This document shows positions 3,749-31,264 of a stretch of 34,757 nt of DNA, piece after piece. The stretch's first letter is position 1. Every line of letters begins with the position of its first letter. The notes under the pieces were generated by a model. The model did not search any database and was not told the DNA's origin. It worked only from the letters and a program-made list of their open reading frames with translations. The position numbers were made by a program, and so were the translations under genes. Source of the DNA: a virus (taxonomy: Duplodnaviria; Heunggongvirae; Uroviricota; Caudoviricetes); IMG/VR virus record IMGVR_UViG_2778261151_000006, positions 1 through 34,757 of that record, one strand, 5' to 3'.

Positions 3749-4933
3749 ATGAGTGAAACTCGTTTTCATGGTGCCCGTGTTACGGAAAGTACCGACCTGG
3801 TAACAGCGATTAACGATGTTGATTCCAGCGTTATCGGTATCGTGGCAACGGCGGATGATGCGGACGCGGAGCTGTTCCCGCTGAACAAGCCCACACTGCT
3901 GACCCGCGTCAATGACGTGCTGGGAAAATGTGGGACAACGGGGACGCTTTATCGTGCACTTAAGGCCATCGCAGACCAGGTGAGCACAAAGGTGATCGTT
4001 GTTCGCGTGGCTGAACACAAAGACGAGGGCGGAAAGACGCAGGATCAACTGGTTATCGGTGGTTCTGAATCTGACGGCAGCTATACGGGGATGTATGCGC
4101 TGCTTGTTGCAGAGCAGGATGAAAGCATCGGATACCGTCCGCGTATTCTGGCCGCGCCGGAGCTGGACACGGAGGCGGTAACAAAATCCCTGTGCGTGAT
4201 TGCGGGTAAACTGCGCGCGTTTGTGTATGCCTCATGTCATGGCTGTAACACGATGGCTGAGGCGATTACCTACCGCCAGAAATTCAACGAACGTGAGGTG
4301 ATGCTCTTATGGCCGGACTTCATCGCCTACAACCCCAAAAGTGGCAAAAACGAAACGTTCCCCGCGCCTGCCTATGCGTGCGGCCTTCGTGCGTACATTG
4401 ACCATGAGCAGGGCTGGCACAAATCGCTGTCCAACGTTCCTGTTAAAAATGTGCTGGGAATGTCCAGGCATGTGTTCTGGTCGTTGCAGGCCGAAGACAG
4501 TGATGCCAACAGCCTCAACAACAAAGAAATCACGACCATTATTCGTCGCAACGGGTTCCGCTTCTGGGGCAACCGCACACCGGAAACGAACGCCTACATC
4601 TTTGAGGTGTATACCCGAACCGCACAGGTGCTGGCTGATTCAATTGCGGAAGCGCAGTTTGAAACCATCGACAGTCCACTGACGCCTGCGAACGTGAAAG
4701 ATGTTATCAGTGCCATCAGGGCAAAACTGGATTCACTGGTTACTGCCGGGAAACTGATTGGGGCGTCGTGCTGGTATGACGTGGTGGATAACGGCACCAC
4801 GAATTTACGTCAGGGGCGCGTGCGTATTCGCTACAAATATACGCCTGTTCCCCCGCTGGAAGACATGGAGCTTTACCAGTCGTTTACTGATGAATTCTTT
4901 GGTCCCGCATTTGCGGTGCTGGGAGGTGCCTGA
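3749..4933 (+). CDS. Tail sheath protein (P2 gpFI-like)
   Basis: 394 aa; motifs DADAE-FPLNKP, IADQ, LRAF-Y, YRQ-F, WPDF, EQGWHK-LSNV, RR-GFRFWGNRT, YTPVPPLE match P2 FI as recalled. Confidence 0.95.
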   Translation: MSETRFHGARVTESTDLVTAINDVDSSVIGIVATADDADAELFPLNKPTLLTRVNDVLGKCGTTGTLYRALKAIADQVSTKVIVVRVAEHKDEGGKTQDQLVIGGSESDGSYTGMYALLVAEQDESIGYRPRILAAPELDTEAVTKSLCVIAGKLRAFVYASCHGCNTMAEAITYRQKFNEREVMLLWPDFIAYNPKSGKNETFPAPAYACGLRAYIDHEQGWHKSLSNVPVKNVLGMSRHVFWSLQAEDSDANSLNNKEITTIIRRNGFRFWGNRTPETNAYIFEVYTRTAQVLADSIAEAQFETIDSPLTPANVKDVISAIRAKLDSLVTAGKLIGASCWYDVVDNGTTNLRQGRVRIRYKYTPVPPLEDMELYQSFTDEFFGPAFAVLGGA

Positions 4934-24513: not shown

Positions 24514-25559
24514 TGAGCAGAAAAAATAAAAAAGTGCGCATGAGTTCACGCATTGATCTCGCTGATGCGCTCAGGAAAGAATCATCGCTCAGTGCATTCA
24601 CATTTGATGGTCCTTATCGCCTGACCGGGCATGACCTGCTGGACAATATGTACTGTGCTGATAACGGGCGGTGGTATGAAACCCCGGTGGACTGGTACGG
24701 TCTGGCAAGAGCTGCCCGGCAAACGTCCTGGCATCAGTCTGCGCTTTACTTTAAGCGCAATGTATTGCTCGGCTGCTATATTCCGCACCCGCTGCTTTCC
24801 CGGCAGGATTTCTCGGCGCTGGCGCTGGACTGGTTTGTGTTCGGTAACGCATTCCTTGAGCTTCGGAGCAATATGCTCGGCGAACCGCTTAAATTACGGC
24901 ACGCCCTGGCGAAATACATGCGACGCGGAAGCGATCTTGAATCATGGTGGTATGTGCAGGATGGCAAGGATGCGTTTCAGTTTCGTCCTGGCAAAGTGTG
25001 CCACCTGATGAATCCGGATATTAACCAGGAAATCTACGGCATGCCGGAATATCTTGGCGCATTACTCTCGGCCAGCCTTTCTCATTCGGCGGACATGTTC
25101 AGAAAACTGTACTACGACAACGGATCCCACGCCGGGTGCATCATCTACATCGGTGCAGCGCAGGTAAACCGCGAAAGCATGGACTCCCTGAAAGAAACGC
25201 TACAGGGGGCACGTGGTGGTGGTGCGTTTAAAAACGTGCTCATTCATGCGCCCAACGGGGGCAAAGAGGGGGTGCAAATTTTGCCGTTCCAGCAGATCAC
25301 CGCAAAGGATGAGTTCATGAATGTTAAGGCGGCATCCCGTGATGATGTGCTGGCTGCGCACCGCGTTCCGCCGCAACTGATGGGGGCGATGCCGGGCGAA
25401 AAAAGTGCGTTTGGTGATGTGGAGAAGGCCGCGCGGGTTTACGCAATTAACGAGCTGATGCCCGTCATGGAGGCCATGAAGCACATCAATGACTGGCTTG
25501 GCGAAGAGGTGATCCGCTTTAACCCTTACGCACTGTTAGACACCCAGCCCACATCCTGA
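24513..25559 (+). CDS. Portal protein (P2 gpQ-like)
   Basis: 348 aa; start overlaps terminase stop (TGATG); size and position. Confidence 0.9.
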   Translation: MSRKNKKVRMSSRIDLADALRKESSLSAFTFDGPYRLTGHDLLDNMYCADNGRWYETPVDWYGLARAARQTSWHQSALYFKRNVLLGCYIPHPLLSRQDFSALALDWFVFGNAFLELRSNMLGEPLKLRHALAKYMRRGSDLESWWYVQDGKDAFQFRPGKVCHLMNPDINQEIYGMPEYLGALLSASLSHSADMFRKLYYDNGSHAGCIIYIGAAQVNRESMDSLKETLQGARGGGAFKNVLIHAPNGGKEGVQILPFQQITAKDEFMNVKAASRDDVLAAHRVPPQLMGAMPGEKSAFGDVEKAARVYAINELMPVMEAMKHINDWLGEEVIRFNPYALLDTQPTS

Positions 25560-26034
25560 CGCGCTTCGCTTGTCTGCTGCTTCGCCGGGGCATAAAAAAT
25601 TTATGCCCCGACTCTCCAGCTCCTGTATCAGTCAGATAATTTCACGACGCTTTCCTGCTGATTGCCATCATCGACAGTCAGACTCTTACGCAATCCCACC
25701 TCGTTGACTGCATATTCTCGCCGTCTCAGTGCGATTTTGACGGCCTTACCTTTCACCCCATCAAATCAAAAGCCCTCACGTCTTTTTCACGCTCAGCGTG
25801 AGAAATACAGCCATTCTGTTGTATCTCTGCGACATCGTTCAGGGAATGCTATTTACCCCCTGAAACGCGGGCTGTTCCCCCGTCACCTGCGCGCAGAAAA
25901 AACGCGTTTTTTTGTGCATGCACGGATCCTTGACGGATCCAGCCGCCACGCGGGCCGGAAGGGCAAAAAGTCGTTCAAAAAAATTGTGCAAATTTGTGCA
26001 CTATTGTGCATTTATAAAATCAACTAAAAAACAC
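25560..26034. other. Non-coding cos-proximal region (predicted packaging site region)
   Basis: 475 bp without credible ORF between portal gene and accessory genes; contains the palindromes ggggcataaaaaatttatgcccc, a6cgcgt6 and ggatccttgacggatcc; exact cos ends not identified. Confidence 0.4.
25984..26010. repeat. Three TTGTGCA direct repeats phased at 10-bp intervals
   Basis: ttgtgca at 25984, 25994 and 26004; helical phasing suggests a protein-binding array. Confidence 0.5.
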
Positions 26035-26490: not shown

Positions 26491-27011
26491 TGGCTGCCCC
26501 CTTTGTACTGTGTTAACTCTTCCTGCTCCTGCATCATGCGATTGACCTGAACGCGTGTGCGTCGAACGGCAAAATTAAATTGAAACATGAGCCGGAACAT
26601 TTCTGATGCTTCCGTGTGAGCATCACGGATAGGTGACAGGCGGTACAGTTCTGCCTCCGTAGCTTGTTGAATCAATGACAGATCAAATTGAAGTGCGGGT
26701 CTGGTACATTTTGCACATCTGGCAGCAAGCTCCGGTATTAGTCTCTTAACGAAGGTGTTTTGCACCGCTTTGTTGATTTGTGTCTGCATCCAAATCGCAA
26801 ATTTCAGCGAACGCATAAGTTTGATAGCCTCGGGCAGCGGCAGATAGATCATGCTGGTAGATTTGGGTGGTTGGTGAACCATCTTCACGGATACGCGATT
26901 TCGCAGCGTTCGGAAAATCGTGTTCCCAACAACAGCTTCTACGGATACAGGACAGGGAGCCAGACCAGCCCGCAGTGCTTCTTTCATTAGCATGTATTCG
27001 TATTTTTTCAT
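26487..27011 (-). CDS. Hypothetical protein (174 aa)
   Basis: ORF with GAGGAAAA SD; no family recognised. Confidence 0.55.
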   Translation of the reverse strand: MKKYEYMLMKEALRAGLAPCPVSVEAVVGNTIFRTLRNRVSVKMVHQPPKSTSMIYLPLPEAIKLMRSLKFAIWMQTQINKAVQNTFVKRLIPELAARCAKCTRPALQFDLSLIQQATEAELYRLSPIRDAHTEASEMFRLMFQFNFAVRRTRVQVNRMMQEQEELTQYKGGSQ

Positions 27012-27071
27012 CGTGTTTTCCTCGTGCGGGGCGACAGTGCACCCCGATAAAATTAAAAGCCGTCAAATTCG

Positions 27072-27383
27072 TCATTCAGGAAATAATGCCCGGATATTCC
27101 CTGCTATCTGACTGGTTATCTGTGCGGTTGGTACTGGCTGTGGCACGGGGCGTTCTGTCCTGGTTTGTGTCACCGATAACGCCTCATCGTCAGCCCATGC
27201 AGCCAGTCGGTAAGCCTCTGCTGGATTCATTTTCAGAAGTGCCAGCCCGGCCAGAAAAGCCACGCGTTGGCCGCTTTTGCGGGCTTCTGGTGTAAGGCTG
27301 CCCAGCAAGGCGCATGCTTCGCTTTCGTTCTTGACGGCCGCAGGCTTCAGATAGAAACTTATCCGTCTGGTTGGTGTCGTCAT
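27072..27383 (-). CDS. parR: ParR-like centromere-binding protein (type II partition)
   Basis: 103 aa from ATG 27381-27383, 4 nt after parM stop with AAGGAG SD; segments RRISFYLKP, AFLAGLAL, IRALFPE resemble plasmid R1 ParR as recalled. Confidence 0.65.
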   Translation of the reverse strand: MTTPTRRISFYLKPAAVKNESEACALLGSLTPEARKSGQRVAFLAGLALLKMNPAEAYRLAAWADDEALSVTQTRTERPVPQPVPTAQITSQIAGNIRALFPE

Positions 27384-27387
27384 TGGT

Positions 27388-28347
27388 TTACTCCTTGTCC
27401 ATTGCGTACAGCCCATTAACCAGAGCAAACTGTGGCACCCCGTCCGCGATGAAAGTCGCATTAACTCCGCAGGCTTCGCGGATAGCGGGTGCCACAATCT
27501 CCGCCCCTCCACCGACAACCATCACCCGCCCGTAACCCGAAAAACCCGCCAGCGCGCGGATCACGCGTTGTTTCAGTGTTTCTTCCTTTTCACGAATAAC
27601 CGCCATCAGGCTGGCGTAATGCGCGTCATTGTGGATGTGCTGGCGCAGCCAGGCTTCATCATGGCGATGTTCGATAATGGTATTGGCGATGTGGTGACTG
27701 GTGCGCATACCGTTAGTGGCCATCACCGACAGTACGGCATCGGCCATCAGAGAAACGCCTACGTGTGGATCGCAAAACACCTGGCTGATACCTGCCAGTT
27801 GCCCCTGAACCTTTGCCACATCCAGCGTGGTTCCGCCCAAATCCACAATCAGCAGGGATTCAAACGGACTCATGTCAGCCAGTGCCTTAAAGCCAGCCGG
27901 AATGGATTCAGGCATAACCCGCACGTTACGGATAGTGAATGCTTCGCCGTTCTGGTACTCCACCGGGCGCATAACGTTCGCTTTTTTGCGGTTGATGTTG
28001 GCCATGTCCGGCTGTGCGTTTGTGTCGAAATACTCGCTCAGTGGCAGGGTGACAACCACATCCACCTCCTGTGGCGTGATGCCTGATTTGACCAGCGCGT
28101 GATGAATGGCAATGACATTTACATCGCTGTATTGGTATTGCGTGTCGGTTGTCTGGACAAAGCGATCGCTGACCGGATCAAAACCATAGCGCACGCCATC
28201 AAGCATGTAGTTCGCGGGCTGCATGCCACCGAACGGCGCAGACCATTCCGACTTGAAGCTGTTCGGGCTGATGGCGTTGCGGCGTTCGCCGTTCTCAGTC
28301 CATGCCAGCTTGATGTTGGTGGAGCCGTCGTCGATACAAATTTTCAT
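27388..28347 (-). CDS. parM: ParM/StbA-like actin-family segregation ATPase
   Basis: 319 aa; N-terminus MKICIDDGSTNIKLAW and motifs YSDVNV-AIHHAL, VDLGGTTLDV, GVSL, VVGGGAE match R1 ParM as recalled. Confidence 0.85.
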   Translation of the reverse strand: MKICIDDGSTNIKLAWTENGERRNAISPNSFKSEWSAPFGGMQPANYMLDGVRYGFDPVSDRFVQTTDTQYQYSDVNVIAIHHALVKSGITPQEVDVVVTLPLSEYFDTNAQPDMANINRKKANVMRPVEYQNGEAFTIRNVRVMPESIPAGFKALADMSPFESLLIVDLGGTTLDVAKVQGQLAGISQVFCDPHVGVSLMADAVLSVMATNGMRTSHHIANTIIEHRHDEAWLRQHIHNDAHYASLMAVIREKEETLKQRVIRALAGFSGYGRVMVVGGGAEIVAPAIREACGVNATFIADGVPQFALVNGLYAMDKE

Positions 28348-28378
28348 GTCGCTTTTCCTTATGTTGATTAATTAATCG

Positions 28379-28490
28379 ATTACGGGATTCTGAAATCCCG
28401 TTTTTGCCTGTTTTGTGCGCGCTTCATATATCGCTGCGCGTTTTTTGCTCATTTACGGGATTCGTGAGTCCCGTTTCTGTCTGTTTTTTG
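28379..28490. repeat. Two about 39-bp direct repeats, each with a hairpin-forming palindrome, upstream of parM and overlapping the 3' end of A
   Basis: attacgggattctgaaatcccgtttttgcctgttttgtg (28379-28417) and atttacgggattcgtgagtcccgtttctgtctgttttttg (28451-28490). Confidence 0.5.
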
Positions 28491-31264
28491 TTTCCACTGG
28501 TCAGGCCACCCCGCAGCAGGTCTGCTTTGCGGCGGGCGCGTTCAGTGGTTTCACTGATTCTCTGTGCGTGCTCTGCGTCGCGGATGGCGCGCAGCATGTC
28601 AGAAAGCACGGTAACGGGTGTTTTCATGGTGTTCTGGTCCTGCTGAAGTATGGATGCCAGGCGTGCGGCTGCTTCGGGGTCTGATGTCCCCAGCTGTTCC
28701 AGATAGCTGGCGACAGGGTTATGACGGATCTCCGTGCTGCTTACGCCGTGATTACGGCTCAGGCGTTGCCAGAGTTGCGTGATTCGGCTGTCCGGGCGGG
28801 TATCCGGTTTGCGTACAATTTCAAATCCCTGCGGTGCAATGATGCTGCCGTCAACGTACAGACTGCCGCCCCGTAACAAGTGCTGCATCTGTTGTTCACC
28901 GATATGCAGGCCGAGAGATTCAGCAGACTCCCGCCATTCTTTAGCGAGTAATTCGTGGTTATCAGGCAAAGGCCGCGGCTGTTTGCGGCTCTGCGTCCAG
29001 TTCTGCATTTCATCACTGCTGTTTTTTGCCTGTTTGTCACGAAGCGAACGCATCAGCGCCCGGCGTTCGTGCCGTTTCAGTGAGCGCATCCATTCGTTCA
29101 CTTCAACGCCGTCAGGGAGCTGCGGCCACGGTGCTGGCCGTTCTTCCGGCTGTTCTGTCCCGTTGTTGTTCGTTTCCTGTACACGGGGACAGTTATTGCC
29201 ACGAGTCCAAGGGGCGGCAGGGCCGCCCTGAAGGTCAAAACCATTTTCGCGGGCGCTGTCTTCCGCTTCCGGTTTGCGTCTTACCAGCTTCCAGTTATCC
29301 GGATGCGTGCACACACGGGAGGATTCCCCGATGAGTGGTGACCAGATCCCGTAAATCTGTACGCTCTGTTCGCCGTAATCGTTCAGCTCATCTGCGAGGT
29401 CGTAGGCGGTGCGAATCAGGTAGTCCTTGCGTGGAACAAGTACGCCGCCCTGTTTCTCTATGTAGGTGGCAAAACATCCGGCATCAGCGGCAGCGAGTAC
29501 CGCATCCATTGCGTCATCCTTCAGCCGTTGCGGGCCTTCCGGGTTGCGTGCCATCTGGCTGGCAAGGCGGCGGAGTTCACGCCATACCTGACGGGAGGGG
29601 ATGCCAAAGAACTGGAACTGGCGGACCCGGTGAAGGCGCGCCCAGCCGATGGCGCGTTCCACACTCTCGGCCATTGATTTTCCGGTTTCGTGGTCAACGC
29701 GTGGCTTGCCCGTTTTCGGGTCGATGCCATCCACGGCGCGGCTGTCCAGGTTCTTTCCGATGTAGGTGGCGATGTAGCTGGTTGGCGTGCCTTTTGAGCC
29801 GTCGACGTACTCCGCCTTAAAACGCGGAGTTATGTCATCGCCCAGCTCGTGGCGGTCTTCCTGAATGGCAATATCGCGGGTGATGGCCACGATGCTGTCG
29901 ATTTCTTCCGGATGAGCAAAGACCATCATGTGCCAGTGCACGGTGCCGTCATGGTGAGGCTCCACCGTGCGGATGCCATACCAGCGCAGGCCGTCGCGGT
30001 TCAGTTTTTTGCGGACCGCCGCAAAAAACGTGTTAACCAGGTAATCGCTGGAGTCGCGCATGGTGGCCCCGTTCCATTTGGGGTTCGGATGACCGTTCTC
30101 CGTTGTTGCGTGGTATTTTGACGGGCAGGTGACAGTCAGAAACACCGCTCTGTCGCCACGGGCTTCGGCCAGAAGTTCCAGTCCCTTCATGGTGGCCATC
30201 ATTTCTGCCTTACGGTGAACCGGGTTACTTACTCCCGCGTAATACACTGTCTCGAGATCAATCGTGAACCCGTCTTCATTTTCCAGCATGAAACTTTTCA
30301 GGAAATCGCGTGTTTTCTCGCGTTGTGCGCGAAACTCGCTTAACGCGTCCTGGCTCAGATAGGGTGATGTTTTTCTGGAAACCAGACAGGCGGCGCGGAG
30401 TTGTTCTTCCCGCCACTCGCAACGTAACAGCCACAGTTTGCGTTTCCACCATTCCGCACAGGTCAGGCGAAGGATTGCGCCCGGCAGCAGCTCCGTATTC
30501 GGTGCGTTCTTCCGGTCTTTGTCCGTTCTCAGTGCTTCGTAATGCGGCGGCATGGCGTGCAGGTGTAACGCCATGCGGGCCAGCATCTGATACGCCTTCA
30601 GCGTTACATCCATGGTCAGTTCGCCATCAGTCGCGCCAAAGCCATCGCAGAGTTTTTCGAAGGTGCTGCTGAACATCGCCGCCGTCATGGTGGCCAGCGT
30701 CTGTATCTGGTGTTTGTTGAGCTGCGGCAGGTAAAGCAAATCGTCCAGGCGTTCGCGTCCGGCAAGGGAGCGATAACCCGGTGTCAGCCAGCGGTGATCG
30801 GTGCGGTCCAGACGTTCGAATATTTTGCGCAGGGTTCCGCGCGCGTAGCGTTCAGCCTGCCAGCTCTTTTTGCCTTTCTGGCGATCGGCTTCCTGTTTTT
30901 TGCGCAGGAAAGAGAGGTGGCGGCTCAGAGGCTCACGCAGATAAACGGGAAGCACCTTCAGTGTGGCAAAAGCACGGGCCACCGGGTCTTGTTCTGTTGC
31001 CTGACGCTTGCTGATGATGCTTTGTGCCAGCTTTTCACGCTGTCCGGCTTCCTCAAGGGATGCCATGAGTTTTTTACCCACGGTGGATTGTGCGAAAAAG
31101 GCTTCCTCCTTCGCTTCCTGTTCTTCCAGAGCCTTTTTGTCTGCCTCAAGGTAGTAACGGATGGCGCGTTGCAGGTCGGTTTCAGTTTCCTGCCTGTGCT
31201 CCGTAAATCTGGCCGGATCAATGGCTGGCCGTGGTTCATTCCAGCTCCATGCAAACTCACTCAT
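28424..31264 (-). CDS. Replication initiation protein (P2 gpA-like rolling-circle endonuclease)
   Basis: 946 aa from ATG 31262-31264 (ATGA overlap with upstream gene); HUH-like motif HHDGTVHWHMMVF and tyrosine motif YIATYIGK. Confidence 0.85.
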   Translation of the reverse strand: MSEFAWSWNEPRPAIDPARFTEHRQETETDLQRAIRYYLEADKKALEEQEAKEEAFFAQSTVGKKLMASLEEAGQREKLAQSIISKRQATEQDPVARAFATLKVLPVYLREPLSRHLSFLRKKQEADRQKGKKSWQAERYARGTLRKIFERLDRTDHRWLTPGYRSLAGRERLDDLLYLPQLNKHQIQTLATMTAAMFSSTFEKLCDGFGATDGELTMDVTLKAYQMLARMALHLHAMPPHYEALRTDKDRKNAPNTELLPGAILRLTCAEWWKRKLWLLRCEWREEQLRAACLVSRKTSPYLSQDALSEFRAQREKTRDFLKSFMLENEDGFTIDLETVYYAGVSNPVHRKAEMMATMKGLELLAEARGDRAVFLTVTCPSKYHATTENGHPNPKWNGATMRDSSDYLVNTFFAAVRKKLNRDGLRWYGIRTVEPHHDGTVHWHMMVFAHPEEIDSIVAITRDIAIQEDRHELGDDITPRFKAEYVDGSKGTPTSYIATYIGKNLDSRAVDGIDPKTGKPRVDHETGKSMAESVERAIGWARLHRVRQFQFFGIPSRQVWRELRRLASQMARNPEGPQRLKDDAMDAVLAAADAGCFATYIEKQGGVLVPRKDYLIRTAYDLADELNDYGEQSVQIYGIWSPLIGESSRVCTHPDNWKLVRRKPEAEDSARENGFDLQGGPAAPWTRGNNCPRVQETNNNGTEQPEERPAPWPQLPDGVEVNEWMRSLKRHERRALMRSLRDKQAKNSSDEMQNWTQSRKQPRPLPDNHELLAKEWRESAESLGLHIGEQQMQHLLRGGSLYVDGSIIAPQGFEIVRKPDTRPDSRITQLWQRLSRNHGVSSTEIRHNPVASYLEQLGTSDPEAAARLASILQQDQNTMKTPVTVLSDMLRAIRDAEHAQRISETTERARRKADLLRGGLTSGNKKQTETGLTNPVNEQKTRSDI

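Follow-up and report, generated by a model that had tools for sequence, protein, structure and literature searches.

What do two palindrome-containing repeats do at the boundary between the replication gene of a P2-like phage and the first gene of an actin-based partition cassette, with one copy reaching into the replication gene itself? The question is raised by a stretch of viral DNA of 34,757 nucleotides (IMG/VR record IMGVR_UViG_2778261151_000006; the whole of this stretch is hereafter called the window), in which gene A, parM and parR follow one another, in that order, on the minus strand. The window is a P88-like (Xuanwuvirus, P2-family) E. coli prophage, and across the A/parM/parR locus it shows 95–98% identity to Escherichia phage P88 and other Xuanwuvirus phages. 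ParMRC is the textbook actin-like machine for DNA segregation and, to our knowledge, experiments have defined its centromeres in no more than a handful of plasmids. A first-pass annotation, made from the letters alone, had noticed the repeats and listed a parC centromere or operator, a replication-origin element and the end of a small antisense transcript as possible roles. Here, comparison of the locus with its relatives leads us to regard the two repeats as a candidate parC centromere/operator, the two arms of a type II (ParMRC) cassette, and we consider this to be the probable reading. Among the roles first listed it is the best supported, since the architecture of the repeats is conserved across divergent P2-like cassettes and tracks the type of ParR; the operator part of the proposal is unsupported (see below).

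Two dyad-symmetric repeats at the A/parM junction

The repeats are direct repeats of 38 nt, at positions 28380–28417 and 28453–28490, which agree at 31 of 38 positions (82%) and start 73 bp apart. The pair is real and non-random; the best pair of 38-mers in 100 shuffles of the 1.4-kb region had at most 27 matches, and the binomial expectation for a pair with 31 of 38 matches, over all pairs, is about 8e-6. The proximal unit, box P (28380–28417, minus strand), sits in the 76-bp intergenic region between A and parM (28348–28423). It has a dyad core of the form CGGG-N10-CCCG (28383–28400), 35 nt from the ATG of parM, within the palindrome ACGGGATT-ctga-AATCCCGT (28382–28401; eight perfect pairs), and on the sense strand the core is preceded by the A-rich stretch ACAAAACAGGCAAAAA. 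The distal unit, box D (28453–28490, minus strand), has its dyad core at 28456–28473 and its palindrome, ACGGGATT-cgtg-AGTCCCGT, at 28455–28474, with eight pairs, one of which is G.T on the plus strand. Box D lies within the last ~20 codons of gene A (ending in KKQTETGLTNPVNEQKTRSDI and the stop codon, 28424–28426). The spacer between the two units (28418–28452, minus strand) holds this stop codon and an AT-rich centre, GATATAT, flanked by GCGCG and CGCGC, and it varies among relatives. On the plus strand, T-rich tails follow both palindromes. The first-pass description of paired hairpin repeats with T-rich tracts, one copy in the 3′-end of A and the other upstream of parM, is thus accurate as to the repeats, the palindromes, the tracts and their placement; the unit is of 38 and not 39 nt, and the second palindrome is imperfect.

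When the 20-nt palindrome pattern was searched for with up to three mismatches, it was found only in these two places in the window, with 0.2 matches expected by chance. The shorter box pattern, YGGG-N10-CCCR, has a background of 2.7 expected matches per window. A third match to it, at 28675–28692 inside A and 219 bp (3 × 73) from box D, is not conserved in two related loci (L079 and L085) and is probably due to chance. No other repeat arrays were found in or next to the parMR cassette, including downstream of parR. The only substantial repeat next to parMR lies directly upstream of parM, the place of parC in R1-type loci (PMC2241845), which speaks for parC.

Conservation of the box pair among related parMR loci

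Viral and genome collections supplied a close set of 83 P88-like loci, with ParM proteins 98–100% identical. Among these loci there are 55 distinct versions of the 220 bp that precede parM, and all of them retain both copies of the repeat. Variation sits mainly in the centres of the palindromes (TTCACAAA, CTCACGAA, TTTCAGAA, TTTAAAAA) and in the flanks, and the GGGA and TCCC arms are nearly invariant. Of 5426 complete E. coli genomes, 1308 carry the cassette (27072–28500), which occurs, for example, in prophage Sp13 of O157 Sakai; it occupies 1454 chromosomal places and two on plasmids. One of the two plasmid records (NZ_CP148288.1; L098) is a complete phage genome, a circle of 34.5 kb with an integrase and a Hok/Gef gene. 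The sequences filed as plasmids that match the DNA of the repeat region are all copies of this prophage, and no plasmid parC region matches it. A scan of genome contigs with ParM returned near-identical loci only. A contig labelled Vagococcus sp. WN89Y (L084) carries an E. coli-type cassette with a ParM 98% identical, most likely as a result of assembly contamination.

Protein searches showed that P2-like prophages of Plesiomonas, Hafnia, Serratia and Enterobacter carry parMR (ParM 54–63% identical) in this same slot, between A on one side and ogr/portal/terminase on the other. In the Plesiomonas (L091) and Hafnia (L092) loci, in which ParM is 62–63% identical, the DNA upstream of parM cannot be aligned with the window, yet each has exactly two YGGG-N10-CCCR boxes. 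These start at 3869 and 3941 in L091 (spacing 72 bp; 42 nt from the end of the last box to the parM ATG) and at 3872 and 3945 in L092 (73 bp; 38 nt). Two further loci, L101 (ParR 74% identical) and L079, have boxes at 725 and 798 (73 bp; 34 nt) and at 2875 and 2948 (73 bp; 35 nt), respectively, and the plus-strand box starts in the window are 28383 and 28456 (73 bp; 35 nt). Estimated from the background frequency of the box pattern, the chance of meeting such a box pair upstream of parM is about 2e-6 per lineage, a figure that is indicative only, as the pattern was defined after seeing the data. In these comparisons the core, the copy number, the spacing and the distance to parM are conserved where the flanks have diverged. 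Scans of viral contigs with the Hafnia and Plesiomonas ParM proteins gave no close relatives and one locus only, of the inverted-repeat type described below. Absence of the repeats from related parMR elements, which the first-pass annotation had named as counter-evidence, was looked for, and the repeats proved not to be absent.

The distant loci also indicate which part of the repeat is retained. In the Plesiomonas and Hafnia loci the inner stem and the T-tract are gone, leaving a stem of 3–4 bp (GGG/CCC) and a loop of 10 nt, and, on the strand that corresponds to the plus strand of the window, two of the four boxes fold no better than shuffled sequences. Across 32 distinct boxes, G4, G5, C16 and C17 are invariant. 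Both sides of a stem pair were changed in only 4 of 256 cells, at each of two inner positions the pair is broken in seven of the 32 boxes, and covariation is at most marginally above the shuffle control. Because the inner stems and the T-tract have been lost and compensatory change is lacking, the conserved unit consists of two half-sites a fixed distance apart, as is characteristic of a site where protein binds double-stranded DNA and not of an RNA or single-strand hairpin.

Two-box sites accompany ParR proteins whose N-terminal strand reads TRR(I/V)SFYL (the window, L079, L101, L091 and L092, which represent few independent lineages). No such boxes occur upstream of parM in the Serratia (L094), Enterobacter (L095) and IMG/VR (L104) loci, in which the ParR strand is NRKISFYL. 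There, the upstream DNA has one long inverted repeat, GGGAAC..ATAGAAAAAT / ATTTTTCT..GTTCCC, with arms 26–28 bp apart (L094, 3870–3980; L095, 3870–3975; L104, 1370–1475), which is probably the parC of these cassettes in its own right. These three cassettes share with the window the genomic slot, ParM (53–58% identical), the motif GCAAAAA(C/T)GGGAAC and strong A-tract phasing, and differ from it in the ParR strand and in having one long inverted repeat instead of two compact boxes. An additional, perfect 14-bp palindrome (GCCGTTTAAACGGC) is seen in L094. Plasmid relatives, with ParM at most 52% identical, have ParR strands of the form NRKCSFYI or RRTIAFKL and upstream iterons unrelated in sequence to the boxes. 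The N-terminal strand is the DNA-reading ribbon of ribbon-helix-helix proteins, and across the loci compared the type of box tracks the type of this strand. The ParR proteins of the E. coli group (loci L003–L085) form at least two allelic classes, with identities as low as ~52% and with differences in helix 1 and the linker; MTTPTRRISFYLKP at the N-terminus and NI(R/Q)A(L/F)FP at the C-terminus do not vary between the classes.

Two rearranged loci bear on the module to which the boxes belong. In L040, compared with positions 28424–29040 of the window, the C-terminal part of A has diverged, and A and parM are separated by an extra open reading frame (ORF) coding for a zinc-ribbon protein of 155 aa (L040:2457–2927). 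From the start of box D onward the locus is again homologous to the window, which argues that box D travels with parMR and not with A. The zinc-ribbon ORF, itself unrelated to A, shares its last ~20 codons and its stop with A of the window. Both boxes of L040 share one G-to-A change (ACAGGAT), and its ParR retains the usual strand. In L099, a P88-like prophage in the chromosome of E. coli CUVET19-1704, parMR has been replaced by a frameshifted ead/Ea22-like pseudogene; in the equivalent of 28419–28500 of the window, identity runs through box D and the stop codon of A and ends 5 nt later, so that box P is lost.

The boxes as a candidate parC

The 150 bp that span the two boxes and the start of parM (28341–28490) rank first among the ~3460 segments of the 34.7 kb for AA/TT periodicity of 10–11 bp, a proxy for curvature, with a power of 2.35, where the mean over all segments is 0.35 and the 99th percentile 1.12. 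Plasmid loci of IncL/M, IncF and R1-like type (L086, L087 and L090) have a power of 2.2–3.3 in the DNA before parM, and the property recurs in four other prophage loci. The second-strongest periodicity of the window (power ~2.0) is at 1141–1300, in an ORF (921–1559) that has no Pfam match and adjoins a YafO-family toxin gene (541–921). The spacing of the boxes, 73 bp, corresponds to about seven helical turns, which would place both of them on one face of the DNA.

The genes on either side are of the kinds named by the first-pass annotation. Gene A (28424–31246, minus strand), whose 3′ tail overlaps box D, codes for a P2-type replication endonuclease of 940 aa (Phage_GPA). The product of parM (27388–28347, minus strand; ATG at 28347, Shine-Dalgarno sequence AAGGA at 28356–28360) is an R1/StbA-type actin-like segregation ATPase of 319 aa with StbA_N and ParM C-terminal domains (PF06406, 2.7e-82; PF21523, 1.3e-68), and it matches the structure of R1 ParM (PDB 1mwk) with an E value of 8.5e-93. 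Among related loci, the variable sites of parM are distributed 4/3/23 over the three codon positions, an indication of purifying selection. The product of parR (27072–27383, minus strand) is a ribbon-helix-helix centromere-binding adaptor of 103 aa (PF10784, 7.7e-23), with the N-terminal strand TRRISFYL and the C-terminal tail GNIRALFPE. A profile built from eight ParR proteins matches the structure of pB171 ParR/StbB (2JD3, E 5e-15), the closest ParR with a solved structure; the N-terminal ribbon-helix-helix region and the C-terminal …LF tail align, and the N-terminal strand and an N..LFP motif at the C-terminus are conserved. The C-terminal tail of ParR is established as the ParM-binding element for R1. 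Both parM and parR are intact, of the R1/pB171 type, and under purifying selection. Elsewhere around the cassette, short tandem repeats are found just downstream of parR (TTTTCATCGTG × 2, 27005–27026) and after the portal gene (AAAATTGTGC × 3, 25965–26010).

How the site would work, with regard to ParR binding, looping, capture of ParM filaments and an operator role, we infer from the paradigm of R1 and pB171. Each arm would be a dyad-symmetric box of 18–20 bp, (Y)GGG-N10-CCC(R), preceded on the sense strand, in the E. coli group, by phased A-tracts, and the boxes would be presented on the same face of intrinsically curved DNA. Ribbon-helix-helix dimers of ParR, through the strand TRRISFYL, may bind both half-sites of each box, and two ParR-loaded arms on bent DNA could then fold into a compact, U-shaped or looped ParR-parC complex. 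Such a complex would offer the C-terminal tails of ParR (NIRALFPE) to the growing ends of ParM filaments, which would push copies of the phage DNA apart. Binding of ParR may also modulate the initiation of parMR transcription, or read-through into it.

The parC of R1 is described as strongly curved and as consisting of two ParR-bound arms, each of five 11-bp iterons, that flank a 39-bp promoter core and are brought together in a U-shaped complex (PMC2241845). The window resembles it in the position of the site directly upstream of parM, in the two separated, repeat-bearing arms, in the A-tract-phased DNA and in the homologous ParM and ParR proteins. It differs in that the two sets of five direct 11-bp iterons and the promoter core of R1 are replaced by one 38-nt unit with a dyad core in each arm, 73 bp apart, with no detectable promoter and with the distal arm inside the coding sequence of the upstream gene; moreover, the R1-like iterons of a plasmid locus (L090) have no sequence similarity to the repeats of the window. 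The structure of parC differs from plasmid to plasmid, and ParR of pB171 is reported to bind only two 10-bp repeats upstream of parM (PMC9426499). Thus, iteron arrays are a trait of R1 parC and not of parC in general, and a centromere of few sites has a precedent in par1 of pB171 (PMC9426499). The pB171 repeats are reported as 10-bp direct repeats and belong to a plasmid, whereas the boxes described here are palindromic, lie seven helical turns apart and belong to an integrating phage. For an integrating phage that carries a system of this kind, AlpAC and alpS of the Corynebacterium prophage CGP3 offer an analogy; they are reported to combine actin-like filaments, a DNA-binding adaptor and specific DNA sites in the service of phage DNA and not of plasmid inheritance (PMC4446434; PMC5539076). 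The protein families and the sites are different, and the analogy would be one of function only.

Several observations weigh against a parC. The iterons that characterised ParR proteins are reported to bind are direct repeats, often arranged in arrays like the 2 × 5 × 11 bp of R1 (PMC2241845; PMC9426499), and the window has only two units, with a dyad-symmetric core, in place of R1-style arrays of short (10–20 bp) direct iterons. Within the E. coli group, box variants do not correlate with the ParR allelic classes; the invariance of the ParR strand together with this lack of sorting is consistent with an unchanged DNA specificity. The L099 prophage shows that box D is able to persist without parMR; we read this locus as a recent secondary loss of parMR, because its flank is 100% identical. 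The Plesiomonas and Hafnia loci lack phased A-tracts. On the plus strand, both palindromes have the appearance of terminators, with stems of 8 bp, loops of 4 nt and T-rich tails. Lastly, a standard scan of the window detected no σ70-like promoter between or beside the boxes, in a type of consensus search that misses weak promoters, and a relaxed scan of seven lineages gave no conserved match. An R1-style operator role is therefore unsupported. No minus-strand terminator was found in a scan between A and parM, and parMR may be read through from A or the early operon.

A more specific form of the proposal is a minimal type II centromere that has only two ParR boxes, both palindromic, with one lying in the last codons of the replication gene, and that ParR would read as dyads and not as direct repeats. 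With such a site, ParMRC would not maintain a plasmid; it would position or separate excised or replicating phage circles, or keep an episomal carrier state. We put this forward as a tentative possibility, more doubtful than probable.

Alternative explanations and implications

The boxes could instead bind another protein, a regulator of the phage or the host, or serve purely as an operator of parMR, with the centromere elsewhere or absent. The dyad symmetry is typical of repressor operators, and characterised ParR proteins have been reported on direct repeats (PMC9426499); also, the prophage is chromosomal at 1454 of 1456 places, where a working centromere is not obviously needed. We regard this explanation as unlikely, given that the cassette and its borders, when searched, showed no further repeat array that could take the place of the boxes, that the boxes follow parMR when the upstream gene changes, and that box type tracks ParR type, as described above. 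As to a pure operator, no promoter was detected that it could control, and in R1 one set of sites is both operator and centromere (PMC2241845).

The pair could also be a functionless scar of duplication or recombination at a module boundary, a short A-rich or palindromic sequence having been duplicated when parMR was acquired at a place where morons swap into P2-like genomes. The junctions do map to the edges of the units (at box D in L040, and 5 nt past the stop of A, between the boxes, in L099), and part of the repeat's A-rich half recurs (CAAACAGGCAAAAAAC, minus strand, 29021–29036) where A of L040 begins to diverge from the window. A neutral scar, however, would not keep the core, two copies, a spacing of 72–73 bp and the distance to parM amid flanks that cannot be aligned, nor would it be expected to track the ParR strand type. 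A scar is, in our judgement, distinctly unlikely.

According to a third explanation, the palindromes are tandem rho-independent terminators of plus-strand transcripts, or the 3′-end of an antisense RNA, and halt transcription antisense to parM before it reaches gene A. Besides the plus-strand features already described, for which a consensus scan flags both palindromes as terminator-like, the hairpins have folding energies of -12.6 and -10.2 kcal/mol (z about -2.4), and the mismatch in the second copy is G.U on the plus strand and A.C on the minus strand. Against this, no plus-strand promoter is predicted between 26000 and 28380, and the terminase and portal genes, the closest on the plus strand, stop 2.8 kb short of the repeats, at 25559, with the interval occupied by parR and parM. 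Positions 27900–28900 gave no match in Rfam, the hairpin and T-tract are lost in Plesiomonas and Hafnia, and the variation in the stems is not compensatory. The end of a small antisense transcript, one of the roles first listed, is not supported by these results, and we consider this explanation, in either form, to be very unlikely.

Two further possibilities can be dealt with briefly. That the repeat reflects protein coding, through an ORF of 26 codons (28375–28452, minus strand; MSKKRAAIYEARTKQAKTGFQNPVID) that overlaps the end of A and box P, is hardly credible: although box P is read in the same frame as that in which A reads box D (…KQTETGLTNPV…), and ~80 of 85 related loci, among them the divergent L101, keep the ORF open over 26 codons, its variable sites show no bias over codon positions (11/14/13, as against 4/3/23 in parM), its ATG has no preceding Shine-Dalgarno sequence, and no equivalent is present in L091 or L092. 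A part in the phage replication origin, as the first-pass annotation had also allowed, is just as implausible: the repeats lie partly inside A, and P2-type origins lie in A, but the homologue of the annotated P2 ori nick site is found at 29189–29218 on the minus strand (GCCCCTTGGACTCGTGGCAATAACTGT, compared with GCGCCTCGGAGTCCTGTCAATAACTGT of P2), ~700 bp upstream of the repeats within A, and P2 itself lacks such repeats at the end of A. The nick-site stretch is the only DNA in 27000–29500 that is conserved with other P2-like phages (of Klebsiella, Salmonella and Yersinia).

The boxes are thus most likely a parC of the ordinary kind that has so far gone uncharacterised, with an unusually compact, palindromic two-box layout and one arm within the upstream coding sequence. 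No literature on parC of P88-like prophages, of Sp13 or of other P2-like prophages was found, in a search that was incomplete. Should the boxes not bind ParR, the finding would reduce to a conserved, unexplained repeat at a module junction. As the likely ParR site, two defined boxes of 18–20 bp provide a compact, directly testable substrate with which to ask how few sites ParR and ParM need, and box mutants give a handle on the role of a partition system in an integrating phage. The biological question to which both lead is what ParMRC does for an integrating phage that about one complete E. coli genome in four carries.

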